Below the pieces are notes generated by a model, which was given only the letters and a program-made list of their open reading frames with translations, was not told the DNA's origin and did not search any database. A DNA stretch of 35,790 nucleotides from Armatimonadota bacterium (lineage in GTDB: Bacteria > Armatimonadota > UBA10988). Location of the stretch: NCBI GenBank assembly GCA_016235455.1, contig JACRKZ010000131.1, forward strand, positions 1 through 35,790. Reading direction: 5' to 3'. Within the stretch, counting starts at the first letter, position 1. Every line of letters starts with the position of its first letter. Positions 12,055-32,750 of this stretch are shown here, in pieces. The translations under genes were made by a program, and so were the position numbers.

Positions 12055-12125
12055 CTAGAGTGCTGGGTCGTGCATGCTCGCGGTGACCGCTGGCCGCCGC
12101 GCGATCGCGGGAAGTGAGCGAGATC

Positions 12126-13091: not shown

Positions 13092-15470
<2,379 letters not shown>

Positions 15471-15838: not shown

Positions 15839-16834
15839 ATGAAGCGCATCGGGGTGCTCTGCAGTGGTGGTGATTCGCCGGGGATGAATGCGTGTGTGCG
15901 CGCGGTGGTGCGCACCGGCCTGGGCCTGGGGCTTGAGGTGTTTGGCGTTGAGCGCGGCTACACCGGACTCGTGAACGGTGTGGTGCGGCCGCTTGTCTCC
16001 CACGACGTCAGCGGCATCATCAACCATGGCGGCACCATCGTCCGCACGGCGCGCTGCCCTGAGTTCCGTGAGGCCGAGGGCCGGGCGCGCGCCGCGGAGC
16101 ACTGCCGCCGGTTGGGCATCGAGGGGCTGGTGGTCTGCGGTGGCGACGGCTCGTTCGCCGGCGGCCGGCAGTTCTGGCACGAGCATGGCATCGGCATCGC
16201 CGGCACGCCCGGCACCATCGACAACGACCTGGCCGGCACGGACTTCACCATCGGCTTCGACACCGCGGTGAACACCGCTGTCGAAGCGTGCGACAAGATC
16301 CGCGATACCGCCGACTCCCACGACCGGGTGTTCGTGGTCGAGGTGATGGGCCGCGCCAGCGGCTCCATCGCGCTGCAGGTGGCAGTGGCCGCCGGTGCCG
16401 AGGTGGTGCTGCTGCCCGAGCGCCCGCAGGTCGGGCCCGAGCAGGTGGCCGCGCTCATGGCGCAGGCGCGCGCCCTGGGCAAGACCTCCATGCTGGTCAT
16501 CGTGGCCGAAGGCGCCGGCACCGGCCAGGGCGTGGCCCATGCCATCGAGTTGGCCACCTCGGGGCTCAGCGTGCGCGCCTCCGTGCTCGGCTATATCCAG
16601 CGCGGCGGTTCACCGACCAGCAACGACCGTGTGCTGGCCACCATGACCGGCGCCGGCGCGGTGCACGCGCTGGTCGATCTCGGGCCAGCTTGCTGCCACC
16701 ACATCGGTGTGGTCACGGGCGCGGTGACGCGCACGCCGCTGGACGACGTGGTGGGCCGGCCCAAGCCGCTGCCCGCCGACCTGCTCGAGCTGGTCGACGT
16801 CTCATCGGGGCTGCGCCTGCCGTCGTTGGCTTAG
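15839..16834 (+). CDS. pfkA: 6-phosphofructokinase, ATP-dependent type
   Basis: MKRIGVLCSGGDSPGMNA, GGDGS, PGTIDND, IGFDTA, VEVMGR, LGYIQRGG; start ATG 15839. Confidence 0.93.
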   Translation: MKRIGVLCSGGDSPGMNACVRAVVRTGLGLGLEVFGVERGYTGLVNGVVRPLVSHDVSGIINHGGTIVRTARCPEFREAEGRARAAEHCRRLGIEGLVVCGGDGSFAGGRQFWHEHGIGIAGTPGTIDNDLAGTDFTIGFDTAVNTAVEACDKIRDTADSHDRVFVVEVMGRASGSIALQVAVAAGAEVVLLPERPQVGPEQVAALMAQARALGKTSMLVIVAEGAGTGQGVAHAIELATSGLSVRASVLGYIQRGGSPTSNDRVLATMTGAGAVHALVDLGPACCHHIGVVTGAVTRTPLDDVVGRPKPLPADLLELVDVSSGLRLPSLA

Positions 16835-16837: not shown

Positions 16838-17647
16838 GTGGCTCGCGCGGTTCTGGCCTGGCTGGCCAGGTGGCTCTTCCCAGCGCGTTGCCAGGGCTGC
16901 GGCCGACTGGGCCCGGAGCCGCTGTGCGACGCCTGCCTGCCGCGCGTACCGCTGATGCTGCTACCCCGTTGTCGATGGTGCGGCCACTGGCTCGACCCCC
17001 TGGCGCGCGGCGTCGAACGCTGCGCCGACTGTCGTTCGGCGCGCGCGGACGACCTGCTGCTGGCGCGCTCGGCGGCGCCGCACGAGGGTCTGACGCGACG
17101 GCTCGTGGTGCGGCTCAAGTACCACCGGCATCAGGCCGCCGCCGAGGCCCTGGGGGCTATCCTTCGCCGCTGGCTGCGTCATGATGAAGAAGCGGCCCGC
17201 GCGCTGCCGTTGGACAGTGCGGCGGCGCTCGTGCCCGTGCCGCTGCACCGACGGCGCCAGCGGTGGCGGAGCTTCAACCAGGCCCGGCTGCTGGCCGAGA
17301 CGCTGGCCGAAGAGTGCGGTCTGCCGGTGGTGGAGGCGCTGGTGCGGGTGCGACCCACGCGGCCGCAGGTGGGGCTGGCGGCCGCCGCGCGCGAACGCAA
17401 TGTCAAGGGCGCGTTCGCCGCTCGCGACGAATGTATCGTGTCGGGTGCCACCTATGTACTGGTGGATGACGTCTATACCAGTGGGGCGACGTTGCGCGAG
17501 TGTGCACGCACGTTGCGTGCCGCGGGTGCTGGCCAGGTGGTCGCGGTGACCGTGGCGCGGCCTATCCGCGAGGATCTGCTCGGGTTGGCGCGCCGTTGGA
17601 CGGCCGAGATGGATCGGTCGTCCGATGGCGAAGGACGCGCTTTGTGA
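16838..17647 (+). CDS. comF: ComF family protein (double zinc ribbon + phosphoribosyltransferase domain)
   Basis: CQGC..LCDAC..CRWC..CADC, LKY, VPVPLH..R...FNQA, R.RNVKGAF, VLVDDVYTSGAT. Confidence 0.9.
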   Translation: MARAVLAWLARWLFPARCQGCGRLGPEPLCDACLPRVPLMLLPRCRWCGHWLDPLARGVERCADCRSARADDLLLARSAAPHEGLTRRLVVRLKYHRHQAAAEALGAILRRWLRHDEEAARALPLDSAAALVPVPLHRRRQRWRSFNQARLLAETLAEECGLPVVEALVRVRPTRPQVGLAAAARERNVKGAFAARDECIVSGATYVLVDDVYTSGATLRECARTLRAAGAGQVVAVTVARPIREDLLGLARRWTAEMDRSSDGEGRAL

Positions 17648-20600
17648 GCCAAGAGCCGGACAACCAGGCCCCGTCGGCGCTACCGCCGGCAGCCAACCGC
17701 CATCGGCGGTGGTTGCTCCTGCTTGCCCTCGGCGCCGTGGTGGCCATGGTGGTTACCATGCCCGTCGGGCCCCAGCACGGTGCCGTGCGCGCCAAGCTGG
17801 TGTCGGCCCTGGAACAGCAGACGGGCCGCCAGGTACGCATCGGCCGGGTGTGGGGCTCGCTGTGGCAGGGCCTGGTCATCGAGCAGGTCTCGCTCTCCGA
17901 CGAGGGCGGTTTTGGCGCCGACGGGCGCAACATCCAGTTGACCTGCGATCGCATCCGCATCCGCTACCACCTGCTGACCATGGCGCGCACGCGCGACCCG
18001 ATGCGTGGCATCAGTTCGGTGGTGCTGGAGCATCCCCAGGCCAAGCTGACCTGGCGGGCCGACGGCACGGTAGACCTGGTGGAGCTGTTCCGCCGCAAGA
18101 AGCCGGTGCCGGACGAGGTGACGACCTTCACCGGTCGGGTGCGACTGAGCCGCGGCATGATCCTGCTCGTGGATGAGCGGCATCCCATCGCCGGCCGGCC
18201 CCGACGCCACGACCTGCGCGAGGCCGACCTCGACGTACGCTTCCTGTCGCGCGGCCATGCGCGCGTGGCACTGGAATCGACGGTGCCCGGCACGGTGGAG
18301 CGTGTGGCGCTGGGCGGTGACCTGGTGCTCGACGGCGGCTGGCGCTTCGACGGCCATGGCGCGCTCGAACATGCGCGCCTGGAGCAGTTTGCGCCGTACC
18401 TCAACGGCCCGCTGGCGCCGAACGTGGAGTTGCGCTCGGGTCTCCTGTCGGTCAGAGGCACTTTCCGGCTCAACCGGCCGCGCGACCCCAAGCTGCCGTT
18501 CGACTCCGGCTACGACCTGCAACTCGAGGCCGAAGGCTGCAGCCTGCGCAGTACGCCGTTCCGCGAGGCCGGGATGGGCGTGACCGGCCGCGCCCGCTAT
18601 CGGCAGCAGAGCACGGCGAACCACACCTTCAACCCCGAGGACGGCGTCTGGTTCGACAACCTGCGGTTCACGATGATCGGCGCCCGGGCCACGCTCAATG
18701 GCCGGCTGATCGGCATCAGCCAGCTGGCGCTCGACCTGCGCATCGCGGTCGAGCAGTTGTCCATGCGGCGGCTGGCCGGTGCGCTCAGAGTGCCCGGCTG
18801 GCTGGCCCAGATGACCGGCGACGGCACAACCAGCGGCGAGTTGCGGTGGTCTGGCCGCGGCGGCGCATGGCGGTTGGCGGGCCGCGCTGCGCCACGCGGT
18901 GTGGGCTGGGCCGGTGTGGCCCGCGTCGATGGCGGCCGGCTGGACTTCGATCTCAAGCAGGACCGCGCCGCGAGCGACGGCTGGGCTGGCCGCGTCGACC
19001 TGGTGGGCGTCGACGCCGTCACGCCACGGCTGGCCGCGCCGCTGACCGGCTGGCGCGGACGCGTCGTACTGGACCACGGCCAGGTGGCGCTCGACCGGCT
19101 CAGCGGGCGACTGGGTGGCGCCGCCCTGGAGATCGATGGCCGCCTGCTGGGCGTCGGCGGCGGTCGTCGCCCCGACCTCGACCTGCGGCTGGCCACCACC
19201 GGCCTGAGCCCGTTGGTGCTGCGGCCGCTGCTGCCCGCGCGCTGGCAGCCCCGCGAGGCCGGCGGCGGCCTGACGGGCGAGATCAGGCTGCGCGGCGCGA
19301 TCGGCTCGCTCAATGTCGCGGGCCATCTGGCCTTCCCGGCGCTGACCGTGGCACAGGGCCGGTTGCTGGGGGGCCGTGCCGCGTTCGATCTGCGGCTTGG
19401 TACCGCCATCGTCGGTTGGGCCGACCTGACCGACGTGGGCCTGTCCACACCGCGGCTTGGCGTGCCCCTGACCGGCATCACCGGTCGCCTGGAACTGGCC
19501 GGCGGCGAGATCACCGCGCACGGTCTGCGCGGCCGGCTGGGCGGTGACGCCCTGCTGGTCGAGGGGCGCGTGCGGCAGGACTTCTCGCACTTCGCGCTGA
19601 CCATCGACGCGCCTGATTTCGATTTGGGCCGCAGCCTGGTGGTCGCCGGCGGCGCCAACCTGGCGGCGCGCGGACGCGCCTCGGCGCGGCTGCGGCTGGT
19701 GGGCTCGCCGCAGCGCCTCCAGGTCTCTGGCCGAGCCACCGTGCCGTACCTGCGCGGCCATGGCTGGCAGTGGGGCCAGGGACGTGTGGCGCTCGATGTC
19801 GAGTTGCAGCCGCGGCTGGGCGTCGAGGGCCTGCGCGGCTGGCTGCGGGTCGAGGACGCGCGGCTGCGGGTGCGCGGCGTCGACGGCCTGCTGACGATCG
19901 CGCGCGCCGATCTCTACCCGGCCGGTGATCGGCTGCGTATCGAGCGCCTGACCGGCGCGGTGAACGGCGATACACTGGCCGCCAGCGGCCTGATCGTCGG
20001 CTTGCGACGCGTGCGCTCGTTGGACGTGCTGGTGACCAGCGCCGAGCTGAGCCAGAGCGGCTGGAGCGCACTGGCCAAGGGCAACGCGCTGCGACTCGAC
20101 CAGCCCGCGGCCGTCGACCTGCACGTGCACGGCACCTGGCCGACACCTACCATCGACGGCACCATCGCCACGGCCGGCGCCACCTGGACCGGTGAGCAGC
20201 CGGTGACGCTGGCGGGCAGCGTGGAGGTGGCGCTGACGCCGGCGGCCGCCGGCCAGCCTCGACCGCCGCTGCCCGCGACCGGGCAGGTGCGCTTGCGCGA
20301 TGTGCGCGTCACCAGCGACCAGCTCGGCGCGCCGCTGAGCGGGCTCAACGGCTGGCTGCGCCTGGCGCGCGACGGCAGCATCAGCATCGTTCGCGAGCGC
20401 GACAGTCTGGTGCCGGGCGAACTGGCCGGTCGGCTGGGCGACAGCCCGCTACGGGTGGCAGGTGCGGTCTGGTCGCGCGGGCGGAACCCGTGGGAGCTGG
20501 ACCTCGTGGCCGACACGCCGGCGCTGGCCGTGGCCGACGTGAGGTCGGCGCTGAGCCGCCTCAAGGAGCCGCCGCAGTTGGCTGGCGAGGGCACCTTCGC

Positions 20601-23600
20601 CATGACCGGCCTGCGGATCAGCGGCCCGCTCGACCGGCTGCGCATCGTTTCGGCGGCGGGCGATGCGGGCTGGGTGACCTTGCCCGGCCGGCTGAGCTAC
20701 CAGGATTGGCAGATCGGCGGTGGCCGGGCGCGAGCCGATCTCACGATCACCAAGGAAGGGGCCAGGCACCGCACCGACGGCACGCTGCTGGTCGAGGGCA
20801 GCCGCATCAGCGGCGGATCGCTACGCGCCGAAGCCACGGTGACCGGGTCGTTGCGCCTGGCGGACGGCCGGCTGGCCACGGCCGACATGGCCGCGGCGGT
20901 CGCCGGCGGCACTGTGCAGGTGGCCTCGCGGGCACAGGGCGACCACGGGTATGGCAGCACGGTGTCGGCCCGCGGTGTGACGCTGGCCGAACTCCTGCCC
21001 GACCAGCGTGACGCTCTGGCGGCACTGGCTGGCGGTGTCGTGGACTCCGACCTCACGGTGGAAGGGCCGCCGGAGAACCTGGCCATCACCGGCCGGCTCT
21101 CGCTGGACACCGGTGCCGGCGGCGTGCCGGCCCAAGCGACGGTCAGCCTGCGGCTGGCGCGCGCCAGGGACGACAAGACGTCGGCGCAGTTGCTCGGCGT
21201 GGCCCGGCTGGCCGGCGGCGACCTCAGCCTGTCCAGCCTCGACGAGCCGTTGCGTGACCTGCGCGGCGAAGTGCGCTTCACCCGCGACCGTGTCGTGTTC
21301 GACCGCGTCACCGCGCTGCTGGCCCAGGCGCCGGTCCGGCTGGACGGCCGCATCACCGACCTGCCACGAGGGCTGTACGACCTCGTCGTGGACACCGACC
21401 CCATCGACCTGGGCGCCGTCGCCTCGGCCATTCGGGTCCCGCCGGCCGCCGGCGCATCGCCGGTCGCCGGCGCATCGCCGGTCGCCGGCGCAGCTGACAC
21501 GCACGTCAGCCTGTGGCAGCGCTGGGGTCTGCCGGCGCTGGCCACGCCGCAGCCTGGCCGGGCGCGGCTGACGCTGCGCGGTCCACGCGAGCACGTGGTG
21601 GCCGCCATCGAGGCTGACCTGCCGCAACTCGCCTTGCCGCGCGCCGCGGTGGTGCCCACGCCGCGTGGGCTGGAGACGAGCGAGGCTGGCAGTCCCACGG
21701 TGACGCTGGCCACCAACCTGCGCCTCCGCGGCCAGGCGGTGGGCTCGCTGGGCGCTGATCCACTGCCCACGGGCGACCGTGCCGCGGCGCTGCTCGAGCA
21801 ACTCGCCGGCCTGCAGCCGACACGGCAGGTGCGCGCGGAGTCGGCCGCAGACGACACGGCGACCAAGGAGCCGCTGTCGCATCGGTTCACACTGGACTTG
21901 CGAGCCACGGGTGACGGGCTGCGCGCGCGGCAGATGCTGGCGCTGACCAGCAAGAAGTCGCGCGACGACGCGCTCAACGGCTGGCTGGGCCAGGCCTACA
22001 CCTTCGCGCCGGGCAACCTGAGCGCGACCATTGCCGGTCGCGCCGACCAGCCCGAGCTGGAGGTCGATCTGAACTGCCCGCGCTGGGAGCTGCGCGGCAT
22101 GCCCGTGCGTGGCATCACGGCCCATGTGCGCGTGGCGGGCGGCGCCGACGAGCGGTTGCTGACCTTCACCAACTTTGCCGCGCAGATACGCGGCGCCACG
22201 CTCCACGGCTCGGGCGCGGTCAGGCTGCGGCCCGATCAGCCGGTGGCCATGGAAGGGCGCTTCCGGGGTGACGGGCTGGAAGTGGCGGCCTTGCAGGCAC
22301 TTGGTCTGACCAAGTCGCGTCCCGATGGCGTCGCCTCGGTCGATGTCGTGGTGCAACTCACCGAAGGGCGCAAGCTGGCCTCGGGCACCGTGCGCGCGCA
22401 GCGGCTGCGGCTGGCTGGCCAGCGCGTCGGCGACGGCGAGGCCCAGTTCGAGCTGGCCGACCGCACGCTGACGCTGCAACGGCTGCTGCTGCGCGACCCC
22501 GAGACAAACGCCTTCTGTCGCCTGCACGGCACGCTCGGCTTCGACGACGACAGCCCGCTGGCGCTCGCGGGCGATGTGCGCGGGTTCGAACTCGACCGGC
22601 TGACGCCGCTGCTGGGCAACGAGCAGAAGTGGTCGGGCCGGCTCAGCGGCCGGCTGGACTACGCGGGCGACATCACCGGCACTCGCCAGTTCCCGCTGAT
22701 CGGCGGCGTGGCCAACGTCTTCTTCGGGTCGGTGGCGGGCGTGCCGTTCACGCGGCTGAGCCTGCGTTCGGCGCCTCAGGGTCCGCGCGAGGTGGCGCTC
22801 AGCGCCGACCTGAACGATAGCGCCTACACGGCCCGCCTGGACGGCACTATCAGTGATCTGGACAGCCGGGCCGGGACGGCGCGCTATGCGCTGGAGGGCA
22901 CGCTGAACAGCCGCGACCTGGGCCAGGTGGCGCCTCTGGCCGCGCCCAAGGTGCCGGCCCTGGCCGAGAGTGAAGGCACCGTTGTGGGCAAGGTGTCGCT
23001 CACCGGCCGCGTCGTGCGGCGCGAGGAGGGTGAGGATGCCGGCCGGCTCAACGCGCTGGCCGACCTGCGCGGCACGGCCAGCCTGCACCTGGGCGGTGCC
23101 GCGCGCAGCCCGCTCAAGATCGCTGGCATCGAGCTGGACGGCGCCGACCTGGACCTGGTGGCCGACAAGGATCACGTGCGTATCGACCGGCTCGAGTTCG
23201 CCACCGGCAGCACGCGTGTGGCGCTCAAGCCAGGCACTTCGAACGCCGTGCGCGACCTCGACACCCAGGCTCGCGTGGAACTGCACCTGGTCACCCAGCG
23301 CCTGCGCTACGACGATCTGGTCGGCTTGACCCGCGTCCCACTGCGCACCGAGGGGTATGTCGATGGCGAGGCCGAAGTGACTGGCCTGGTCCGCAAACCC
23401 GCGGCACGGGTCACCTTCGCCACGCACGGCCTGCGCATCGAGGGCGACCAGGTGCCCGACCAGGTCATCGGGCTGAGTCTGGCGCGCGGCGAGATTCGCC
23501 TGGACCGGCGCATCACGCTGGACCTGTTCGGCGCTCGGGCCGAGATCGAGGGCGGCTGGGTGGACGGTCGGCCCGAAGGCGAGGGGCGGCTGACGCTGCA

Positions 23601-26202
23601 CAACCTGACGCGGCTGAGGCAGGTGGCCGAGACCGTGGCCGGCGCCAGCCAGGACCGGCAGCCGCGGCTGTGGCAGTCGCAGTTGCGCGGCTACCTGGAT
23701 GACCTGCCAGCCTTCGCCGCGGGACACCTGTCGATGGTGGCGACCTTGCGTCGCGACGGCGAGGCGACCAACGGCCTGGTGCGGCTCAACGCGGTCGGCC
23801 TGCAGGCGGTGGGTGCAGACGGCCCGCGCCCGCTGCCGCCGGTGGACGCCGAGGTGCGGTTGGGCCTGGGGCTGGGCGCTGGCCCCAAGGCCATCGAGGC
23901 GCGCAGCGAGCCGGGCATCGTCTACCTGACCGGCTCGGCCCGGCTCGAGGCACTGCGCTTCGCCGACGTGCGGCTGCGGCTGAGCGCCGACGAGGTCGAT
24001 CTGCGACCGTATGCCGCCTGGTCGCCCAGCCTCAAGGGCCTGGGCGGCAGTTGCTCGCTGGCCGCCGACATCAGCGCACCGGCCAGGCGCCTGGTGATCA
24101 GCAACGGGCACCTGGCCGCTGCGGGCCTGTCGTTGGGGCAGGTGCGGCTGGCCACGGTGCGCGCGGAGCGCGTAGCCCTGCGAGACGGTGTGCTGAGCTT
24201 CCAGCCGCTGGAGATCCAGGAGCGCAGCCTCACCGCCAGTCTGTCGGGCAAGGTGCCGCTGGAGCGCACGGCCAAGGGCGTGCGGCTCCGCGACGACCCG
24301 GCGCGGCCGGTTGACCTGCGCGGCGGCATCGACGTCTTCGACCTGTCGGATTTCGAGGACTTGATGGGTTCGGTCGGCTGGCTTGAGGGCAATGCCAAGC
24401 TGGAACTCGTGGCCCAGGGCCGCGCCAGCGAGGCACGCGTGGCCGGCGCGGCGACGCTGCAGATGCCGCTGCTGCAGATCGTGGACCGGCCAGCCACCGA
24501 AGCACCGCTCACCGCGGGCGGCATACGCACCTTGGACCGGCGCGGCGAGGTGATGCTGCTGCAGGACACGCAGGTGCGCCTGACCATCGACCAGAACCTG
24601 GTGCGGCTCGACCAGTGCGACGGTGCCGTGGTGCCGGCCAGCTACGCCATGACGCCGATGCCCAACGCTGACCGGCTGGCCAAGGATCGCGCCGACGGGC
24701 GGATCGGCAGTTTCTCGCTGCGCGAGGCGGTGCTGCCCGGCCGCGACCGCAGCGAGCCGGCGCTCGAACTGCGCCACCTGGAGCGCGCCCGCCTGCTCGA
24801 GAACCCGCTCAATCTGGACCTGTTCTTGAACCATGTGACGGCGCGCACCAAGTGGGTGGCGGTCCGCGACCTGTCCATCGCCGGCCAGATCAGGGCTCGG
24901 CAGGAGAACAATCGCTTCACCGCCAACGAGGCGCGACTGGTCAACTGCTCGGGCTGGGTCAACGACGGCTGGGCCAGCCTGACGGGCACCATGCTGGCGC
25001 GGGTGGGCGACCCGCGGCGCTGGGCGGAGCAGGAGTACCATCTGCGCCTGACCACGCCGTCCGTCGATGCCAAGGCGCCCGCCGACAGCGCCGACGGGCG
25101 ACTGGTGGCCTCGGCGCCGAAGGCCGCCACGCCGCGGCCGACGCCCGACGGGCGCGTGGTCTATCCGGTACAGATCAACGATCCCGCCTCTGGCCTGCTG
25201 CGCGTAGCGGCCGACGTGGGTCTGGATTCGCACACTCGGGAGTACGGGCCGCTCACCTTATGGGGCAAGGTCATGCTGACCGACGTCATCCTGCGCGAAG
25301 GCGCACTGGCGCTGCTGTCGGCCGACCCCAACCGGCCACGGCGCGACTGGCCGGCCTCGCCCGAGCTGCGGTTGAGCATCACCGCGCCGGACCGACAGCG
25401 CAACCGCATCCTCACGCGCGTGCCCGCCATCGACCTGCCCTTCGCCACCAGCCTCAGCCTCAGCGAGACCCCGCAGCGGCTGCGCCTCGAGGGTACGGTG
25501 GACGTGGCTTCGGGCTCGGTGTATGCTAGCGTGCTGAAGGCGCCCATCGAGGTCCAGAGCGGTACGGCCACGCTGCGCGTGCAACGCAACCCGCAGAGCG
25601 GTGCGTTTGAGCCGCACGCCGAGTTCGACAGCCGTTCGGAAACCGTGCTGCGTGCGGCGCGGCGCGGATCGAGCAGCGGGTTCAGCGGTGAGGACAACGT
25701 CGACTACCACGTGTCGCTGCGCGTACGCGGTACGGTGCGGCCGGGCGCGGAGAAGCCGGAGACCGAGTTCAGGGTTGACGCGCGCAGCACGCCGCCGCTG
25801 CCCGAGGAGACCATCTTCGCGCGGCTGTCGACATCGAACGACTTCGCGCAGGCCCTGGAGCGAGGCACGTTGGAGTCGTTTGTGAAGGAGGAGTTGGCCA
25901 ATGCGGCGTTGCAGACGGCCATCACCTACACCTTCACGCCGGTGTTCGAGGAGATCCGCAAGGGTATCGGGCTGGACGAGTTTGCCGTGCAGTATGAGCT
26001 GAACCAGCCCTTCGAGGTCCGTCTGGGCAAGTACCTGGTGCGGAACTTGTTCGCTGGCGTCAAAGTCAGCGTCAATGAACGGGGCGACAGCAGGCAGGTG
26101 TACCGGGTGAGCTATCAGATCTCCAATTCGTTCAAGATCGGTGGTCAGGCGGACACCCGTGATGACTACCGGTTCACCGTCGAGTATCAGGCTGGATTCT
26201 GA
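17644..26202 (+). CDS. Giant TamB/AsmA-like periplasm-spanning protein (~2850 aa)
   Basis: GTG start overlaps the comF stop (GTGA). N-terminal TM anchor followed by an AsmA-like N-terminus (LEQQTGRQVRIGRV..SLWQGLVIEQVSL); long Gly/Leu-rich beta-strand repeats; DUF490-like C-terminus (STPPLPEETIFARL, IGLDEFAV, VRLGKYLVRNLF, ends YQAGF); lies upstream of bamA. Confidence 0.82.
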   Translation: MSQEPDNQAPSALPPAANRHRRWLLLLALGAVVAMVVTMPVGPQHGAVRAKLVSALEQQTGRQVRIGRVWGSLWQGLVIEQVSLSDEGGFGADGRNIQLTCDRIRIRYHLLTMARTRDPMRGISSVVLEHPQAKLTWRADGTVDLVELFRRKKPVPDEVTTFTGRVRLSRGMILLVDERHPIAGRPRRHDLREADLDVRFLSRGHARVALESTVPGTVERVALGGDLVLDGGWRFDGHGALEHARLEQFAPYLNGPLAPNVELRSGLLSVRGTFRLNRPRDPKLPFDSGYDLQLEAEGCSLRSTPFREAGMGVTGRARYRQQSTANHTFNPEDGVWFDNLRFTMIGARATLNGRLIGISQLALDLRIAVEQLSMRRLAGALRVPGWLAQMTGDGTTSGELRWSGRGGAWRLAGRAAPRGVGWAGVARVDGGRLDFDLKQDRAASDGWAGRVDLVGVDAVTPRLAAPLTGWRGRVVLDHGQVALDRLSGRLGGAALEIDGRLLGVGGGRRPDLDLRLATTGLSPLVLRPLLPARWQPREAGGGLTGEIRLRGAIGSLNVAGHLAFPALTVAQGRLLGGRAAFDLRLGTAIVGWADLTDVGLSTPRLGVPLTGITGRLELAGGEITAHGLRGRLGGDALLVEGRVRQDFSHFALTIDAPDFDLGRSLVVAGGANLAARGRASARLRLVGSPQRLQVSGRATVPYLRGHGWQWGQGRVALDVELQPRLGVEGLRGWLRVEDARLRVRGVDGLLTIARADLYPAGDRLRIERLTGAVNGDTLAASGLIVGLRRVRSLDVLVTSAELSQSGWSALAKGNALRLDQPAAVDLHVHGTWPTPTIDGTIATAGATWTGEQPVTLAGSVEVALTPAAAGQPRPPLPATGQVRLRDVRVTSDQLGAPLSGLNGWLRLARDGSISIVRERDSLVPGELAGRLGDSPLRVAGAVWSRGRNPWELDLVADTPALAVADVRSALSRLKEPPQLAGEGTFAMTGLRISGPLDRLRIVSAAGDAGWVTLPGRLSYQDWQIGGGRARADLTITKEGARHRTDGTLLVEGSRISGGSLRAEATVTGSLRLADGRLATADMAAAVAGGTVQVASRAQGDHGYGSTVSARGVTLAELLPDQRDALAALAGGVVDSDLTVEGPPENLAITGRLSLDTGAGGVPAQATVSLRLARARDDKTSAQLLGVARLAGGDLSLSSLDEPLRDLRGEVRFTRDRVVFDRVTALLAQAPVRLDGRITDLPRGLYDLVVDTDPIDLGAVASAIRVPPAAGASPVAGASPVAGAADTHVSLWQRWGLPALATPQPGRARLTLRGPREHVVAAIEADLPQLALPRAAVVPTPRGLETSEAGSPTVTLATNLRLRGQAVGSLGADPLPTGDRAAALLEQLAGLQPTRQVRAESAADDTATKEPLSHRFTLDLRATGDGLRARQMLALTSKKSRDDALNGWLGQAYTFAPGNLSATIAGRADQPELEVDLNCPRWELRGMPVRGITAHVRVAGGADERLLTFTNFAAQIRGATLHGSGAVRLRPDQPVAMEGRFRGDGLEVAALQALGLTKSRPDGVASVDVVVQLTEGRKLASGTVRAQRLRLAGQRVGDGEAQFELADRTLTLQRLLLRDPETNAFCRLHGTLGFDDDSPLALAGDVRGFELDRLTPLLGNEQKWSGRLSGRLDYAGDITGTRQFPLIGGVANVFFGSVAGVPFTRLSLRSAPQGPREVALSADLNDSAYTARLDGTISDLDSRAGTARYALEGTLNSRDLGQVAPLAAPKVPALAESEGTVVGKVSLTGRVVRREEGEDAGRLNALADLRGTASLHLGGAARSPLKIAGIELDGADLDLVADKDHVRIDRLEFATGSTRVALKPGTSNAVRDLDTQARVELHLVTQRLRYDDLVGLTRVPLRTEGYVDGEAEVTGLVRKPAARVTFATHGLRIEGDQVPDQVIGLSLARGEIRLDRRITLDLFGARAEIEGGWVDGRPEGEGRLTLHNLTRLRQVAETVAGASQDRQPRLWQSQLRGYLDDLPAFAAGHLSMVATLRRDGEATNGLVRLNAVGLQAVGADGPRPLPPVDAEVRLGLGLGAGPKAIEARSEPGIVYLTGSARLEALRFADVRLRLSADEVDLRPYAAWSPSLKGLGGSCSLAADISAPARRLVISNGHLAAAGLSLGQVRLATVRAERVALRDGVLSFQPLEIQERSLTASLSGKVPLERTAKGVRLRDDPARPVDLRGGIDVFDLSDFEDLMGSVGWLEGNAKLELVAQGRASEARVAGAATLQMPLLQIVDRPATEAPLTAGGIRTLDRRGEVMLLQDTQVRLTIDQNLVRLDQCDGAVVPASYAMTPMPNADRLAKDRADGRIGSFSLREAVLPGRDRSEPALELRHLERARLLENPLNLDLFLNHVTARTKWVAVRDLSIAGQIRARQENNRFTANEARLVNCSGWVNDGWASLTGTMLARVGDPRRWAEQEYHLRLTTPSVDAKAPADSADGRLVASAPKAATPRPTPDGRVVYPVQINDPASGLLRVAADVGLDSHTREYGPLTLWGKVMLTDVILREGALALLSADPNRPRRDWPASPELRLSITAPDRQRNRILTRVPAIDLPFATSLSLSETPQRLRLEGTVDVASGSVYASVLKAPIEVQSGTATLRVQRNPQSGAFEPHAEFDSRSETVLRAARRGSSSGFSGEDNVDYHVSLRVRGTVRPGAEKPETEFRVDARSTPPLPEETIFARLSTSNDFAQALERGTLESFVKEELANAALQTAITYTFTPVFEEIRKGIGLDEFAVQYELNQPFEVRLGKYLVRNLFAGVKVSVNERGDSRQVYRVSYQISNSFKIGGQADTRDDYRFTVEYQAGF
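21448..21492 (+). repeat. Perfect 18-bp in-frame tandem repeat, 2.5 copies (AGASPV)
   Basis: GCCGGCGCATCGCCGGTC x2 plus GCCGGCGCA. Confidence 0.9.
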
Positions 26203-26204
26203 GC

Positions 26205-27650
26205 ATGAACAAAAGGTCCTCGAAGTCCCCTTGGCGGCGCGTGGCGCGCTGGCTGGCCGTGTCGGCCGGCATGGTCGCGGTGGTGCTCGGTGGCGCGGGC
26301 TGCGGCTCGAGTGGCACCAGCTTCGCCGAAGGCGTGCGTGTCGATGAACTGAAGGTGCGCGATATCGGCGTGGTGGTCACGGATACGACGGCGACCATTT
26401 CGTGGGTGACCCGCGTGACCCAGGGCAGCCACGTGTACTACGGCCCGACCAGTCGGCTGGGCACCACCGTGGCCGGCTCGATCGTCACGCGCCAGACCAC
26501 CACCGTGGACGGCGTCGACCATCAGGCGCAGATCACCGGGCTGACGGCCAACACGGTCTACTTCTTCCAGGTGGAGGGCCGCAAGACGACCTTGCGCTTC
26601 CGCACCGCGGGTGGCACGCGCACGCGGCTGGCCTTCGTCAGCGACCGCCTCGACGGCCGGCGCGAGATCTATCTGGCGCACGAGTTTGGCGAGAACGTCA
26701 CGCGCCTGACCACCACCGGCGGCTGGAGCCCCGCGCTCAGCCTCGACGGCACCCGGGTGGCCTGGGTGGGCAATCGCGTGGGCGGCGGTACCGACATCTT
26801 CCTCGCCACGCTCGACGCGAGCGGGCTCGTGGCCGGGTCGGTGCAGAACCTGACCGACACCGCCGACCGCGACGAGGCGCATCCCTGCTGGTCGTCCGAC
26901 GGCACGGCGGTCACCTTCTCCTCGGCCGGCGGGCTGGTCCAGCGCGTGGTGGCCGGCGGCGCGGAGACGACGCTCATCGGTGGACGCTACAGCTTCGATC
27001 AGCCGACCTGGCGGCGCGACGGTGCACGGCTGGCCTTCATCTCCAACCGGCGCACGGCGACCATCCAGCTCAAGCACCGGCCGGTGCTCGAGGGCAGCGT
27101 GTCCATCAAGGTGCGCGACCACAACAACTCCGTGCTCGCCCCGGCGCTCTATGAGCTGTACGACGCGACCACCGGCCTGATCGACCTCAGCGCGGCCGGC
27201 GTGGGCAACCTGCACGTGCGGGTCACCTACCGCAGCGGCGGCGTGCTCTACAGCGACGAGCAGTATCGCTCGCCGGTGCCGCGCACGGCGCTCTACACCA
27301 TGGCCGCCGACGGCACCGACTTGCGCCGCATCACTGACCTGGACTACTCCGTGGCCAGTCCCGAGTGGTCGGTCAGCGGCTCGCAGTTGTTCTACTGCCG
27401 CGAGTCGTCGGGCCTCAGTTCGATCCTGCAGATCAACGCCGACGGCAGCTCGGTCAAGGCCCTGTCCAGCGGCGACTTCCTGGATCGTGATCCGGTGGTG
27501 GCGCCCGACGGGTCGGGCATCATGTTCGTCAGCAATCGCGATGCCAACCGCCTGGTGAATCTGTGGCTGCTGCCCTCGGGCCAGTCTATGTATATGGTCA
27601 ACCTGTTCAGCAGCGGCGACACGGAGCCGAGCTGGTCTGTGGTACCCTGA
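26205..27650 (+). CDS. Lipoprotein with FN3-like domain and TolB-like PD40 beta-propeller
   Basis: Lipobox GAGC; FN3/purple-acid-phosphatase-N-like TATISWVT...YYG...ITGLTANTVYFFQV; PD40 repeats LAFVSDR, PALSLDG, PCWSSDG, PTWRRDG..LAFISNR, PVVAPDG..IMFVSNR. Confidence 0.85.
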   Translation: MNKRSSKSPWRRVARWLAVSAGMVAVVLGGAGCGSSGTSFAEGVRVDELKVRDIGVVVTDTTATISWVTRVTQGSHVYYGPTSRLGTTVAGSIVTRQTTTVDGVDHQAQITGLTANTVYFFQVEGRKTTLRFRTAGGTRTRLAFVSDRLDGRREIYLAHEFGENVTRLTTTGGWSPALSLDGTRVAWVGNRVGGGTDIFLATLDASGLVAGSVQNLTDTADRDEAHPCWSSDGTAVTFSSAGGLVQRVVAGGAETTLIGGRYSFDQPTWRRDGARLAFISNRRTATIQLKHRPVLEGSVSIKVRDHNNSVLAPALYELYDATTGLIDLSAAGVGNLHVRVTYRSGGVLYSDEQYRSPVPRTALYTMAADGTDLRRITDLDYSVASPEWSVSGSQLFYCRESSGLSSILQINADGSSVKALSSGDFLDRDPVVAPDGSGIMFVSNRDANRLVNLWLLPSGQSMYMVNLFSSGDTEPSWSVVP

Positions 27651-27670
27651 ACCGCGCGCGAGGAGACTCC

Positions 27671-28630
27671 ATGGAGCGCAAGCGCAACTCGCATACCCGC
27701 CGGACGCTGGCGGTAGTGTCCGCCCTGCTGGCCGCGTGGGCCATGTCCGGCTGCGGATCGGGCAGTGCCAGCGACTTTGTCTGGGGACGTACGCCGTCCA
27801 TTACGCCTGATGGCACCAAGCTGGTCTTCTGCCAGAACCTGTCCACGCCCAGCGACCAGTTGACCACGACGGTCTCTGTCCTGGACACGGGGGCCATCTG
27901 GACCTCGGCCGCCGACGGTACCAGCCCGCTACGGCTGACGCCCGACGGACGTGGCCCGGACTACTACCCGACGGTGTCGCCCGACGGCCAGCGCATCGCG
28001 TTCATCAGCTCCGAGGACAAGCAGTTCGACCTGTGGGTGGAGCGCCTCGACGGCAGCGATCGGCACAAGCTGACCTTCGACACAGCCGTCGACACCATGC
28101 CCTGCTGGAGCCCCGACAGCCGGCGCATCGCCTTTGTCAGCGACCGCGGCGGCAACACCGACATCTGGATGATCAACCTGGATGGCACCGGTCTGCAGCA
28201 GGTCACCTCGTTGCCCAGCGATGAATCGGGCCCGGCTTTCAGCCCGGACGGCAACAAGATCGTCTTCGGCACGAACCGCGACCGCGGCAATTTCGACCTG
28301 TGGATCCTGGACCTGGTGGGCGGCGGGTTGACCCAGTTGACCCACAAGCCCGAGGTCAAGGCCAAGGTCAGTGACGGTGGCCCCTGCTGGTCCCCAGACG
28401 GCGCGAGCGTGGTGTTCAGCCGCTGGGACGGGCACTGGGAAGTGTACACCATCGCCGCCGACGGCACGGCGCTGACACAGTTGACGAGCACCGTGGAGCA
28501 CTCGGGCGACCCGCGCTACAGCAGCGACGGCTCGACCATCTACTTCACCTCGTCACGCACCGGCTGGTGGCAGGTCTGGGCGATGGACGCCAACGGCGCC
28601 AACCCGCGCCAGGTGACTGGTCGCAACTAG
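27671..28630 (+). CDS. TolB-like PD40 beta-propeller lipoprotein
   Basis: AGGAG RBS, ATG 27671, lipobox MSGC; six P.wSPDG..IAF.S repeats. Confidence 0.9.
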   Translation: MERKRNSHTRRTLAVVSALLAAWAMSGCGSGSASDFVWGRTPSITPDGTKLVFCQNLSTPSDQLTTTVSVLDTGAIWTSAADGTSPLRLTPDGRGPDYYPTVSPDGQRIAFISSEDKQFDLWVERLDGSDRHKLTFDTAVDTMPCWSPDSRRIAFVSDRGGNTDIWMINLDGTGLQQVTSLPSDESGPAFSPDGNKIVFGTNRDRGNFDLWILDLVGGGLTQLTHKPEVKAKVSDGGPCWSPDGASVVFSRWDGHWEVYTIAADGTALTQLTSTVEHSGDPRYSSDGSTIYFTSSRTGWWQVWAMDANGANPRQVTGRN

Positions 28631-28642
28631 CGCGTAGCGGCG

Positions 28643-28689
28643 CCGACTCCCACGGAGCGCGCCGACTCCCGGGCTTCGGCCCGACTCCC
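28643..28689 (+). repeat. Three direct repeats of CCGACTCCC with exact 19-bp period
   Basis: Copies at 28643, 28662 and 28681 in the intergenic region upstream of the ECF sigma gene. Confidence 0.8.
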
Positions 28690-28824
28690 GGGGAGAACAT
28701 AAGCAGACGGTCGCGCAATGGCGCGAGAAGTGGTACAACCTGGAGCACTGAGGAGGGGACCCCCCAACCTATGCGGAGTGGCTCACCAATGCGGGAACCG
28801 GCTTGGGATCGAAACAGGCAGGCA

Positions 28825-29427
28825 ATGGACGACGACGAACTGGCTATCTCCTTTGACGAGGTGGTGGAGCGGTACGAGAAGCGCGTCTTCAACCTGTTGC
28901 TGCGCATGGTCGACGACTATGACGAAGCAGCCGATCTGACCCAGGACGTGTTCGTTCAGGCCTACAAGGCGCTCGACAGCTTCCGTGGCGATTCCAAGAT
29001 CTACACGTGGCTGTACCGCATCGCCATCAACCGCTGTAAGAACCGCATCAAGCAGATCAATCGCAATGCGGCCTACATCGCCGGTTCGCTAGACGACCCG
29101 GTGGATGGCGAGGACACCCTCTCGCGGGATGTTCCCGACCTCAGCAACGCTCCAGAAACCTACCTCGAACGCGTCGAACTGCGCGAAGTGGTGCAGCGCG
29201 AGATCGCGCAGTTGCCGCACGATTTCCGTGTGGTGATTGTGCTGCGCGACCTGCAAGGCTTGAGCTACCGCGAAATGGCCGACGTGATCGGCATCAGCCT
29301 GGAGGCGGTCAAGAGCCGCCTGTTCCGGGCCCGGACGCAGTTGCGCGAGCGCCTGACGCCTTATCTGCGCGGCGAGGACATTCCTCCCGAGCCGACGGCG
29401 TCGCGTCGCGGGCCGCGCCGGTCCTGA
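28825..29427 (+). CDS. ECF RNA polymerase sigma factor (RpoE/SigW-like)
   Basis: Region 2: DEAADLTQDVFVQAYKALDSFRGDSKIYTWLYRIAIN. Region 4: LRDLQGLSYREMADVIGISLEAVKSRLFRAR. The start could be 28771 or 28789. Confidence 0.93.
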   Translation: MDDDELAISFDEVVERYEKRVFNLLLRMVDDYDEAADLTQDVFVQAYKALDSFRGDSKIYTWLYRIAINRCKNRIKQINRNAAYIAGSLDDPVDGEDTLSRDVPDLSNAPETYLERVELREVVQREIAQLPHDFRVVIVLRDLQGLSYREMADVIGISLEAVKSRLFRARTQLRERLTPYLRGEDIPPEPTASRRGPRRS

Positions 29428-29455
29428 CGTGCAAACCTAAGCGGCGAGGTGAGCT

Positions 29456-32050
29456 GTGAGCGTGGAGCGAGGATGGCGCGCATCGCGCGCCGGTGCGGCG
29501 CTGGTCGCCGTTGTACTGTCTGTGACGGCCGGTTGGGCCGGCGGCCGGGTGTCCACCCAGCCGGTTGGCCAACAGGTCCATCGGCTGCTGGCCGCCGAGA
29601 CGGCGCCGGCGCCGACCATTGCCCCCGCCAAGCAACCGGTGGTCGCGGCGATTGACGTGCAGCCCGCGCGTTACGAGGGACTCGTCCTCGACGCCATGCG
29701 CTGCAAGGTCGGTGAGCCGTTCGACGACGCCAAACTCCAGGCGGACGTCAACACCATCCTCGACCTGGGCTGGTTCCGTTTCACCACGGCCGGCGAGGCC
29801 GGCGGGTCGCGTGTCACCAAGGTGCCCAACGCCGCGGGCGAGATGGTGATCAACGTCAACCTGGTCGAGAATCCCATCGTGTCCGGCATCGAGTTCCACG
29901 GCGTGGCCGACACCGAGAAGCCCAGCGCCGAGCAGTTGGCCAACGAAATCGGCTACCTGCGGGTCGGCTGGCCGCTGAACACCAACCGCGACAAGATGGA
30001 CCGGGCGCTGCTGGCGCTCACCACGCTCTATCGCGGGCAGCTCAAGATCGACGCCAAGGTCGATCTGCTGCCGGCGACCGTCGCGCCGGGTCCGTATGAG
30101 ACCAAGGACGGCAAGCTCATCGTCCATCTGCAGGTGACCAAGACCGGCGAAGTAGCGCCGGGCGGCACCACGCCGACTCCCGCGACCCCCGGCGGAGGCA
30201 CGCCGACTCCCGGCACGCCCGGCGGCACTGCGCCGACTCCCGGTGGCGGCGTCACCACGCCGGCGCTGCCCGACTTGCGCATGCGCATCAGCAAGATCGA
30301 GGTGCAGGGCCTCAAGACGGTATCCGAGAGCCTCGTGCGCGACACCATCACCGTGCGCGAAGGCCAGATCTTTGACCGCGCCGTGGTGCAGGCCGACATC
30401 AACCGGCTCAATGCGCTGGGCTACTTCTACTTCCAGTCGGACCGCGAGTCGCTCTCGGCCATCGGCTATCCGCTGCCGCCGGCCAGCGAGCGCGGCTCGC
30501 GCGTCGAGCCCGTGCCCGAGCCCGACGGCCAGGGCCTGACGCTGGTCTTCCACCTGGTGGAGCATCCCACCATCCGCGCGGTGGAGCTCCGGGGCAATAC
30601 GCTGTTCACGCGCGACAAGCTGATCGGCCGCCTCAACCACCTCGTGGTGGGGCGCGCCTTCAAGGCGCTGGCCGACGTCATCGACCGCGAGTCGTCGCGC
30701 ATGACCGACCTGTACGGTGAGCAGGGCTACCGCGCGTTCGTCAACCTCGGCGCCGATGGCAAGCCGCTGCTCTCGCCGGTCGATGGTGGCGTCAAGGTCA
30801 GCTTCACCATCGTCGAGGCGCGTGTCGGCACCATCTCGTTCAAATACACGGGCCGCAAGCGCACCAACCCCAAGGTCTTCAGCGCGTACATGAAGACCAA
30901 GCCAGGCGCCTACTACAACCTCAACCGGATCCAGGAGGACACGCGCGAGATCATGCGCCTGGACGTGCTGGAGTCATTCGCGTTGAGCCGTGAGTCCGGC
31001 ATCGACCCGAAAGACCCGTCGCGCCTGAACCTGATCTTCGATGTGACCGAGAAGCGCACCATCAACCTGTCGGCCGGTGGCGGTATCTCGTCACGGTACG
31101 GTCTGGTCGGCTTCGTGGATGCCTCCGAGAGCAACCTGTTCGGCCTGGCGCACCGTGTCTCGGCGCGCGTCGAGGCGGGTGGCCGGTTCAACGCCGACCT
31201 CAACTACTTCTGGCCGCTGCTCGATGGCCGGGGTACGGAGTTCACCACCCGGCTCTACAACACCGACGACAAGACCGGGGCCACCGGCCTGGGCGCGTTC
31301 ACCAACCGCCGGCAGAACTTCGACCAGACGCGGCGCGGCGCCTCACTGCTGTTCTCGCGGCCCCTGGGCACGGGCATCCGCGCCTCGGTGGGCTACAAGA
31401 TCGAGAACGTGAGCACGGCGCGGCGAGGCACGTTGCTGCCCTCGCTGCCGCCGTTCCCGTTCCAGGATGTCGGCTCCGACACCACCAGTTCGGTGACCCT
31501 GGGCATCACGCGCGATGTGCGCGACTATCCGCTCGACGCCACGCGCGGCAGCTATGCTTCGGCCAGCCTGGAGTATGCCGGTCTGGGCGGCGACAACAAC
31601 TTCCAGAAGTACCGACTGGAAGGGCGCACCTACTTCCCCGTGCTCGGCGGCAAGGTGGCTTCGGGCCGCCGCGAGCCGCGGCCGGCGTGGGTGGTGGCGG
31701 GTCGGGGGCAGGTGTCCTACAGCACCGGCCGCCTGCCGTTCAGCCAGAGCTTCTTCGTGGGCGGCGCCGACAGTCTGCGCGGCTACAGCGAGGACCGCTT
31801 CTTTGGCAACCGCGCGTTCCTGATGAACCTGGAGCTGCGCCGCGCGCTGCCCAACAACATTCAGGTGGTGCTCTTCTTCGATGCTGGCCGGGCTTGGCGC
31901 CAGGGCGAGCCGCTCGACTTCTTCAGCAACCTGGCCACCTCGCTGGGTCTGGGCGCACGCGTGGCCACGCCACTGGGTCCCATCCGCCTCGATTACGGCT
32001 GGGGTGGGGAAGGCTCCAAGCTGCACTTCAGCTTCGGCCAGGCCTTCTAG
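29456..32050 (+). CDS. bamA: BamA/Omp85 outer-membrane protein assembly factor
   Basis: Signal peptide, about five POTRA-like repeats, and a barrel with SESNLFGLAH, FFVGGADSLRGY (loop 6), FFDAGRAW, TPLGPIRLDYG and a C-terminal FSFGQAF; followed by skp. Confidence 0.88.
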   Translation: MSVERGWRASRAGAALVAVVLSVTAGWAGGRVSTQPVGQQVHRLLAAETAPAPTIAPAKQPVVAAIDVQPARYEGLVLDAMRCKVGEPFDDAKLQADVNTILDLGWFRFTTAGEAGGSRVTKVPNAAGEMVINVNLVENPIVSGIEFHGVADTEKPSAEQLANEIGYLRVGWPLNTNRDKMDRALLALTTLYRGQLKIDAKVDLLPATVAPGPYETKDGKLIVHLQVTKTGEVAPGGTTPTPATPGGGTPTPGTPGGTAPTPGGGVTTPALPDLRMRISKIEVQGLKTVSESLVRDTITVREGQIFDRAVVQADINRLNALGYFYFQSDRESLSAIGYPLPPASERGSRVEPVPEPDGQGLTLVFHLVEHPTIRAVELRGNTLFTRDKLIGRLNHLVVGRAFKALADVIDRESSRMTDLYGEQGYRAFVNLGADGKPLLSPVDGGVKVSFTIVEARVGTISFKYTGRKRTNPKVFSAYMKTKPGAYYNLNRIQEDTREIMRLDVLESFALSRESGIDPKDPSRLNLIFDVTEKRTINLSAGGGISSRYGLVGFVDASESNLFGLAHRVSARVEAGGRFNADLNYFWPLLDGRGTEFTTRLYNTDDKTGATGLGAFTNRRQNFDQTRRGASLLFSRPLGTGIRASVGYKIENVSTARRGTLLPSLPPFPFQDVGSDTTSSVTLGITRDVRDYPLDATRGSYASASLEYAGLGGDNNFQKYRLEGRTYFPVLGGKVASGRREPRPAWVVAGRGQVSYSTGRLPFSQSFFVGGADSLRGYSEDRFFGNRAFLMNLELRRALPNNIQVVLFFDAGRAWRQGEPLDFFSNLATSLGLGARVATPLGPIRLDYGWGGEGSKLHFSFGQAF
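30157..30262 (+). repeat. Degenerate 30-bp tandem repeat encoding a PGG(T/G)(T/A)PTPxT linker
   Basis: CGCCGACTCCC at 30171, 30201 and 30231; protein APGGTTPTPATPGGGTPTPGTPGGTAPTPGGGVTTP. Confidence 0.85.
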
Positions 32051-32054
32051 ACCG

Positions 32055-32083
32055 GGAACCGGGGTGGGCTGAGCCCAGTCTGA
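32055..32083 (+). promoter_or_regulatory. Candidate sigmaE-type (ECF) promoter for skp
   Basis: GGAACC-N17-GTCTGA, 22 nt upstream of the skp ATG; resembles the GGAACTT...GTCTGA sigmaE pattern. Confidence 0.4.
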
Positions 32084-32105
32084 CGAACCATCAGAGGAGA
32101 GATAG

Positions 32106-32750
32106 ATGACGAAGCGCGCCCGAGCCGGTTGGCTCATCGTGGCGGTGATGGCGGCCGTGTGCGCTCGCCCCGTGCGGGCTCAGCAGACGCCTAACATCGG
32201 CAAGGTCGAGATGGACCAGGTCTTCGCCAAGTTCGAGTACTTCAAGGAGAAGGCCAAGGAGTTCCAGGAGTTGAGCCGCCGGCTCAACGCTGAGTTCGAC
32301 GAGCGCCGGGTGAACTTCCCCTTGCTGCTCGACGAGGAGTACAACAAGCTCATCGAGCTGCGCAACAAGGCCCCGCTGAGCGCCGACGAGAAGAAGGAAT
32401 TCGAGCGCCTGACGCGTCTCGGCGACGACCGTGACGCGCAGTTGGCGCGGCTGTCGGTGCTGGAGGACAACAAGATCACCGCTGAGGAGAAGAAGCTCCG
32501 GCAGCAGTTGATGGCCATCCGCACCCAGGCTCAGGAGCAGCAGAAGGCCATGGGCGAGAAGCACCAGGCCACGCTGGCCAAGCAGGACGAGGACATGAGC
32601 AAAGAGGTCCGCTCGCGCATGGAGGCGGCCGCCAAGGCCATCGCCGCCGAGAACAACCTCATCGCCGTGCTGCAGTCCGATGTGGTGCTGTTCGGCGGCA
32701 TCGACATCACCGACAAAGTCGTTGAGCGGCTGAACGCCAAGCCCAAGTAG
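32106..32750 (+). CDS. skp: OmpH/Skp family periplasmic chaperone
   Basis: GAGGAG RBS, signal peptide ending VRA-QQ, IGKVEMDQVF, long coiled coil, VVLFGGIDITDKVVERLN; directly after bamA. Confidence 0.87.
   Translation: MTKRARAGWLIVAVMAAVCARPVRAQQTPNIGKVEMDQVFAKFEYFKEKAKEFQELSRRLNAEFDERRVNFPLLLDEEYNKLIELRNKAPLSADEKKEFERLTRLGDDRDAQLARLSVLEDNKITAEEKKLRQQLMAIRTQAQEQQKAMGEKHQATLAKQDEDMSKEVRSRMEAAAKAIAAENNLIAVLQSDVVLFGGIDITDKVVERLNAKPK

Follow-up and report, generated by a model that had tools for sequence, protein, structure and literature searches.

A sigma factor gene in the tamB-bamA-skp cluster of an Armatimonadota bacterium, with two PD40 lipoproteins as candidate partners of BamA and TamB

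Knowledge of the accessory subunits of BAM, the beta-barrel assembly machinery, and of its stress control is almost wholly proteobacterial, and diderm bacteria that possess only BamA and TamB pose an open question. This question is raised by a locus on contig JACRKZ010000131.1 of the Armatimonadota genome assembly GCA_016235455.1. The window analyzed here is the whole contig, 35,790 nucleotides in length, and derives from a 6.5-Mb genome bin that is 93% complete and approximately 70% G+C. Six tightly packed genes at 17644-32750 encode, in order, a TamB-like protein, two lipoproteins with PD40 propeller repeats (PD40a and PD40b), an extracytoplasmic function (ECF) sigma factor, BamA and the periplasmic chaperone Skp/OmpH, with successive intergenic gaps from tamB to skp of 2, 20, approximately 140-158, 28 and 55 nt. 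This cluster, which the original prediction described as six co-oriented, closely spaced genes, is real, and all six genes were located on the + strand. The reading we lean towards is that the locus is the Armatimonadota form of a BamA-TamB outer-membrane biogenesis operon, wired to a sigma factor and with the PD40 pair as likely partners. Under this reading the sigma factor would transcribe its own gene plus bamA and skp, and higher sigma activity would directly yield more capacity for outer-membrane-protein insertion and chaperoning, in a cis-wired counterpart of the control that sigma-E exerts over bamA and skp in E. coli. In the family to which the window genome belongs, PD40a and PD40b would have been inserted between tamB and sigma and be co-expressed with both. 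Judged from genomic context, both lipoproteins would most likely act in the periplasm with the TamB-BamA machine, where they could serve as scaffolds or substrate-handling partners, like the unrelated propeller BamB.

The arrangement of the core genes was surveyed in an even sample of 151 Armatimonadota genomes, with an orthologue cut-off of E <= 1e-38 for sigma. A BamA barrel match was found in at least 140 genomes, a sigma orthologue in at least 124 and both in at least 117; these counts are lower bounds, as 34 and 24 matches exist beyond those listed. Counted by presence, 126 of the 151 have the sigma orthologue. Among the 117 genomes with both matches listed, sigma was located just 5' of bamA on the same strand in 100, spread over most of the sampled families, with 221-1503 nt between sigma and the BamA barrel match, and the presence of the sigma gene is therefore no accident. 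In loci from outside the family for which upstream sequence was available, a sigma orthologue lay immediately 5' of bamA in 11 of 14; at nine of the 11 the gene directly 5' of sigma encodes a TamB/DUF748 protein (1443-2480 aa). PD40 genes were found beside sigma-bamA in none of these loci. A further 40 loci were scanned with a home-built model of the TamB C-terminus, which was found upstream of sigma in 27, with only approximately 600 nt of upstream sequence covered. Within the family, and at many loci elsewhere, bamA has retained skp as its 3' neighbor. tamB-sigma-bamA-skp is thus the core arrangement of Armatimonadota, and the phylum-wide linkage of sigma, bamA and skp without an adjacent anti-sigma gene is the new point that we consider solid. 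The synteny comparison proposed together with the original prediction came out halfway, in that sigma was present in most relatives and the PD40 genes were absent from most. One genome without a recognisable adjacent TamB contains, 4.5 kb upstream of sigma-bamA, a 2549-aa frame without a Pfam match (L014:4011-11660, +), which might encode a very divergent TamB-like protein.

The sigma gene (28789..29427, +) encodes a protein of 212 aa, and its start matches the orthologue alignment, unlike the alternative start at 28771. Only Sigma70_r2 and Sigma70_r4_2 were matched, that is, regions 2 and 4 without region 3, which is the ECF architecture, and the sigma70-ECF model TIGR02937 scored 106 bits against a cut-off of 42.9. 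The best equivalog model was RpoE (TIGR02939; 146.5 bits, below its cut-off of 236.15), followed by SigW models. Relatives were sought by searching with the sigma orthologue alignment against one genome per species, and 80 loci were listed. The top-listed sigmas were from Armatimonadota (46-52% identity), followed mostly by those of Gamma- and Betaproteobacteria (37-43%). The sigma gene was followed by bamA in 7 of the 80 listed loci, all of the Armatimonadota type; at 12 other loci that were checked, the gene 3' of sigma encoded RseA (3 loci), a zf-HC2 anti-sigma factor (4), an Ogt-like protein (1) or an unassigned product (4). No RseA or zf-HC2 anti-sigma gene was found beside sigma in the window or in the examined loci of the phylum, where bamA is the downstream gene. 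On these comparisons the Armatimonadota sigma appears to be a sigma-E-like factor at which bamA replaces the usual anti-sigma neighbor. How such a sigma is restrained without a neighboring anti-sigma is a question that the locus poses, and a phylum that joins a sigma-E-like factor physically to bamA-skp makes it simple to test whether outer-membrane assembly came under sigma control early or by convergence. The claim that the cluster carries its own stress sigma stands as regards adjacency and likeness to RpoE; the stress role itself is inferred from that likeness and from the ECF-type motif described below, which was seen in other families and not found in the window. Next to the best relative other than the window's own sigma (L063:4001-5058; labelled Armatimonadetes, 52% identity), the downstream gene is not bamA but one for an Ogt-like methyltransferase, which suggests that the sigma gene has been relocated or duplicated in some lineages.

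Upstream of sigma in loci from outside the family, an ECF-type two-block motif was found 120-325 nt before the start of the conserved sigma core. The consensus of the motif model is GTGAAAC-N17/18-GTCTAAAC (roughly TGAAAC, 17-18 nt, GTCTAA). Its short form, AAC-N17/18-GTC, was present in 25 of 43 non-family upstream regions, compared with 4.5 +/- 1.9 in dinucleotide shuffles (maximum 10 in 300 shuffles) and 8 on the reverse strand, and a stricter form was present in 18 of the 43 regions vs 0.76 in shuffles. Left out of the motif set were 8 of 40 extra loci, whose sigma frame was not located by pattern. In four loci (L010, L011, L017 and L021) the top motif match of the whole 20-kb locus was in the gap between tamB and sigma. 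For most of the phylum, the most economical reading is that sigma-bamA-skp is a self-activated unit.

For the family of the window genome, the most economical reading is that sigma is transcribed either by read-through out of the PD40 genes or from an unrecognised promoter. The PD40b-sigma spacers, which were compared in a family spacer alignment, are short (approximately 45-160 nt) and unalignable; that of the window (28631..28788, +) is longer than in relatives and contained no match of at least 9.5 bits to the position weight matrix of the motif and no sigma-70-like site, and no motif match was found near the end of PD40b or the start of sigma. Contigs assembled from RNA libraries of a relative of approximately 96% identity span the 3' end of PD40b into sigma (28589-29175 and 28583-29256, two runs) and sigma into bamA (29275-29541, one run), and are compatible with, not proof of, co-transcription. 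The runs contained only 6-9% of the sampled words, as contigs, and carry no claim as to habitat, expression level or transcript ends. Two of the contigs, from two runs, start 6 nt apart (28583 and 28589), approximately 45 nt before the PD40b stop, and such clustered starts give at best a faint suggestion that the 5' end of a transcript lies within the coding sequence of PD40b. The best motif match in the window (12.5 bits) lies at 32053-32093 (+), within the 55 nt that separate the bamA stop from the skp start, and weaker matches were seen near the bamA-skp junction of loci L003 and L006.

The PD40 genes form the second, local layer of the cluster. PD40a (26205..27650, +) encodes a 481-aa lipoprotein with a lipobox, a Pur_ac_phosph_N/fn3-like domain (Pfam match at residues 59-127) and PD40 repeats, and PD40b (27671..28630, +) encodes a 319-aa lipoprotein with a lipobox and a bare PD40 beta-propeller (Pfam PD40, 160 bits). 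Together with the sigma regions described above, these features bear out the claim that two TolB-like propeller lipoproteins and an ECF sigma are located inside the cluster. The lipobox cysteine is conserved in PD40a and PD40b of 6/6 family orthologues, and mature lengths are near-constant in the family (PD40a 443-449 aa, PD40b 291-294 aa). Among 5.8 billion proteins, 13 orthologue clusters were found for PD40a and 21 for PD40b, the lipobox cysteine of PD40b being invariant across the 21; beneath these clusters, there was a sharp fall to generic PD40 proteins of 26-38% identity. The window genome encodes other PD40 proteins and no close paralogue of PD40a or PD40b. The gene order comF-tamB-PD40a-PD40b-sigma-bamA-skp was found in all five same-family genomes, as far as their contigs reach. 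Compared with the rest of the phylum, the PD40 pair appears to be a later, local insertion between tamB and sigma.

The AlphaFold2 (AF2) model of PD40a (predicted local distance difference test score, pLDDT, 86.3) comprises an fn3-like sandwich at residues 51-133 and a propeller at 140-479 that includes an inserted beta unit at approximately 286-355. In the PDB it matched TolB structures best (16-19% identity, E 4e-16, TMq 0.49), and propellers of the S9 and DPP-IV types came next. TolB was considered as an identity for both proteins and rejected. PD40 repeats and the closeness of the PD40a model to TolB crystal structures are shared with TolB, whereas PD40a and PD40b are lipoproteins without the TolB N-domain (TolB_N), give only partial matches to the TolB equivalog (94 and 174 bits, respectively, against a cut-off of 343) and lie outside a tol operon in a genome with no Pal match over cut-off, and PD40a additionally has its fn3-like N-domain and inserted beta unit. 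BamB was likewise rejected on sequence, as TIGR03300 matches neither protein and the repeats are of the PD40 type rather than PQQ-like. Like BamB, both are beta-propeller lipoproteins in the genomic context of BamA, and the role proposed for them would be analogous; unlike the PQQ-like, eight-bladed BamB, they have PD40 repeats and no sequence relationship to it. A co-fold that paired mature PD40b (21 aligned rows) with the POTRA region of BamA (residues 56-532; 6 aligned rows) was performed without controls, gave scores of 0.00/0.00 and is uninformative.

A counterpart of PD40a was found outside the family. P0017, a 501-aa protein with a lipobox and PD40a-like domain order, is 31% identical to PD40a, and a 99%-identical copy of it is encoded at metagenome locus L143, where sigma lies 66 nt 3' and is followed by a 640-aa BamA with three POTRA domains and by Skp. 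At L143, a PD40a-type gene is thus placed directly before sigma, in a locus that has neither PD40b nor the two extra POTRA domains. That another, more distant lineage has such a gene before sigma-bamA-skp makes a functional tie more probable, and points to PD40a, ahead of PD40b, as the better candidate. A partnership of PD40a-type lipoproteins with the BamA-TamB machine is attractive but unproven; as candidates for a non-homologous partner of BAM/TAM they are concrete and narrowly distributed.

The machine itself was examined at the level of its two large proteins. The bamA gene (29456..32050, +) encodes 864 aa, in which a signal peptide and five POTRA domains precede a C-terminal Omp85 barrel, the 16-strand domain expected of BamA; the barrel was matched by PF01103 at residues 560-864 (146 bits, cut-off 24) and its strands begin near residue 534 in the AF2 model. 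The five POTRA-like units (residues 60-133, 139-227, 275-364, 370-452 and 454-530) are modelled as beta-alpha-alpha-beta-beta folds; as segments, two had strong scores (E 3e-10 and 9e-7), and those of the other three were weak (E 3e-3 to 5e-2). Residues 230-271, within a Pro/Thr/Gly-rich linker between the second and third units (30149..30274, +), are disordered (pLDDT approximately 31), and family orthologues differ in how long this stretch is. The description of this BamA as split-POTRA was therefore not upheld, since no POTRA domain is split and the five units are interrupted only by this disordered linker of approximately 40 residues. Its description as lengthened was overstated, since five POTRA domains are canonical and the protein is long only vs the three-POTRA BamAs of most other Armatimonadota. 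Three POTRA matches were obtained for other BamAs of the phylum with 551-644 aa. Longer BamAs (730-895 aa) occur in families without PD40a, so that having extra POTRA domains does not strictly go with having the PD40 genes. A homologue search with the POTRA region recovered 5 proteins, with low-complexity words filling the candidate list. In one family locus (L007, G003:C363, positions 1110-3591) bamA is present as a pair of frames, 511 and 703 aa long, that overlap and reflect either a frameshift or an assembly error in the bin.

The tamB-like gene (17644..26202, +) encodes 2852 aa, with a hydrophobic N-terminal segment (membrane anchor) visible in the translation. PF04357 (TamB) was matched at residues 2585-2850 (70.5 bits, cut-off 22.4) and DUF748 at residues 14-286 (53.8 bits, cut-off 50), with YhdP also at the N-terminus, where the protein begins in AsmA-like fashion. 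One family orthologue aligned over residues 48-2852 at 31% identity, whereas the shorter TamBs of the phylum aligned at the two ends only, and no internal repeats were found by BLAST. The protein looks long by the yardstick of E. coli lengths. The claim that TamB is lengthened needs correction: its 2852 aa belong to a continuous range of lengths across the phylum, from 1443-2480 aa outside the family to 2807-2894 aa inside. The last gene, skp/ompH (32106..32750, +), encodes a 214-aa periplasmic chaperone with a signal peptide; a signal-like N-terminal segment is present in its translation and Pfam OmpH (PF03938) scored 46.5 bits (cut-off 32.4).

Profile searches of the genome yielded a single Omp85 match, the window's bamA, and a single TamB match, the window's tamB-like gene. 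The genome is therefore without TamA, its sole Omp85 being the neighboring BamA, and this BamA, which scored 231 bits with equivalog TIGR03303 (below the cut-off of 297), counts by default as the functional one. Searches of the 93%-complete genome gave no match for BamD/YfiO, BamE or TolB_N, and BamB and Pal models had only sub-threshold matches in other proteins, which for BamB were other, larger PQQ-like proteins, all below cut-off. Absence of BamB, BamD, BamE, TolB_N and Pal is thus likely, not proven, because of the completeness of the bin. These results agree with the original prediction, which placed no tolQRA/pal or bamB-E genes nearby (none is in the window) and called for a genome check of the BAM lipoproteins, tamA and tol-pal. 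Genes of the MotA/ExbB family are present elsewhere in the genome. LptD had no genome match by Pfam, a result that is uninformative, as the model matches only 2 control genomes. The further claim of a hybrid BAM/TAM machine with accessory lipoproteins is supported in part: the single Omp85, the single TamB and the undetected BamB, BamD and BamE speak for a BamA-TamB locus, and the PD40 proteins are its putative subunits on genomic context.

Operons of tamB and bamA have been described in bacteria without TamA (Heinz et al. 2015, PMC4494059), and a hybrid BAM-TAM machine that keeps BamB and BamD has been modelled for Borrelia burgdorferi (Brangulis 2026, PMC13382580). As far as the portions of these papers used here extend, the locus resembles these systems in having one Omp85, one adjacent DUF490 TamB and no TamA, and differs from Borrelia in that BamB and BamD were undetected in its genome. 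It differs from both in its 2852-aa TamB, in the two PD40 lipoprotein genes within the cluster and in the ECF sigma between tamB and bamA, which those portions do not mention. Beyond Proteobacteria, tamB, bamA and skp are reportedly linked in the outer-membrane clusters of diderm Firmicutes, a linkage that the window shares; in the part of the literature searched on these clusters, neither a sigma gene nor PD40 lipoproteins were reported. Our literature search found no report of a sigma gene within a tamB-bamA cluster, nor of this Armatimonadota arrangement, and the main text and part of the supplement of the ECF reclassification paper contain no Omp85, BamA or POTRA context. With the sigma-E/RseA system the locus has in common that its sigma is closest to RpoE models and to the proteobacterial sigmas that precede rseA, that an ECF-type promoter (-35 AAC, -10 GTC) is located 5' of sigma in most of the phylum, and the link to bamA and skp. 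Unlike that system, sigma, bamA and skp are physically adjacent with no RseA or zf-HC2 neighbor, the window sigma scores under the RpoE equivalog cut-off, and the promoter was not found in this family.

Several observations weigh against the sigma-wired operon with PD40 partners, both in its regulatory part and in its PD40 part. The motif was derived and counted in the same sequences, which come from related genomes and are not independent. Matches of at least 14 bits are absent from both strands of the window, the six family loci contain only scattered matches of 9.5-13.3 bits with no conserved place, and no match was found upstream of sigma or PD40a in the window or the family loci, so that self-regulation of sigma is not directly supported in the family. 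A genome-wide scan at 13 bits or more returned 156 matches vs 183 in a block shuffle, and with no enrichment no regulon can be read. The RNA contigs may contain DNA, and a single transcript is not proven by them. PD40a (E <= 1e-25) was found in 6 genomes out of 151, which belong to a single family, and the other 145 keep the core cluster. The family (f1) loci and L143 may stem from one ancestral insertion, and shared ancestry could explain the retention of the PD40 genes in the family, as pfk and comF, described below, are likewise syntenic there; with the whole neighborhood syntenic, it says little about function that the genes are conserved among family members.

These last points are also what gives an appreciable chance to the view that the PD40 lipoproteins are passengers, with a periplasmic job outside BAM/TAM (envelope tethering, peptide or glycan binding, or partnership with a protease can be imagined), which landed in the tamB-sigma gap of a single lineage and are co-transcribed there. 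The core cluster evidently works without PD40a elsewhere, and PD40-only "TolB-like" proteins are abundant, mostly without a known role, and include others in this genome. Against passengers stand the position of the genes inside the operon at gaps of 2 and 20 nt, the narrow orthologue groups with conserved lengths, the 31%-identical homologue in the same place before sigma-bamA-skp at L143, and a genome that, within its 93%-complete bin, is without every known BAM lipoprotein. The opposite extension of our preferred reading, a self-contained Armatimonadota module for outer-membrane-protein assembly in which an RpoE-type sigma that has shed its linked anti-sigma is fixed to bamA and skp while, in one lineage, PD40a and PD40b dock on BamA-TamB in replacement of BamB-E, seems to us doubtful.

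It is improbable that the adjacency of sigma and bamA is a frozen accident, with sigma controlling other genes and bamA-skp transcribed from another promoter. Such a view would fit a sigma from which no regulon is derivable, a family in which no promoter motif was found, and the several families that have bamA yet no sigma orthologue at the cut-off (e.g. f11, 0/12). It is opposed by same-strand adjacency in 100/117 genomes and most sampled families, by the ECF-type motif 5' of sigma combined with very short sigma-bamA gaps, by the RNA-library contig that spans sigma and bamA, and by the sigma-E-type factors that are the closest relatives of this sigma elsewhere. Very unlikely, finally, is a role of the PD40 lipoproteins as a periplasmic sensing arm of sigma that reports unfolded outer-membrane proteins or envelope damage in place of RseA/RseB/DegS-type input: it would suit a sigma that no anti-sigma adjoins, unlike its relatives outside the phylum, the position of PD40b and of the L143 PD40a-like gene immediately 5' of sigma, and an ECF motif whose undetectability in the family could mean rewired control, but both proteins, as plain lipoproteins, lack membrane-spanning and cytoplasmic anti-sigma domains, the locus has no candidate for a transmembrane relay, and most of the phylum has the same sigma without the PD40 pair. 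If neither the sigma wiring nor the PD40 partnership is true, the locus keeps its use as an annotated case of a BamA-TamB operon without TamA.

The DNA around the cluster was annotated over the rest of the window. A comF-like gene (16838-17647, +), encoding a double zinc ribbon and a phosphoribosyltransferase, overlaps the start of tamB by 4 nt and is preceded by a phosphofructokinase gene (pfk; 15842-16834, +); the order pfk-comF-tamB is retained in two family genomes (L004 and L006). A scan of 15-34 kb for sigma-70-like sites returned a single + strand site, at 15738-15766 upstream of pfk, and no excess of terminators was seen. Open frames without a Pfam match are located at 5364-9050 (-; 1228 aa), 9829-11124 (+; 431 aa), 12074-12979 (+; 301 aa) and 33870-35216 (-; 448 aa), and some of the long unmatched frames may be spurious because the DNA is 70% G+C. 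The cluster is flanked on one side by a gene for a membrane H+-pyrophosphatase (13092-15626, -) and on the other by genes for a DUF123 protein (32761-33200, -) and a LysE-type exporter (33204-33863, -), and near the end of the contig lies a fragment of an IS4/5-family transposase (DUF4096; 35396-35749, +).

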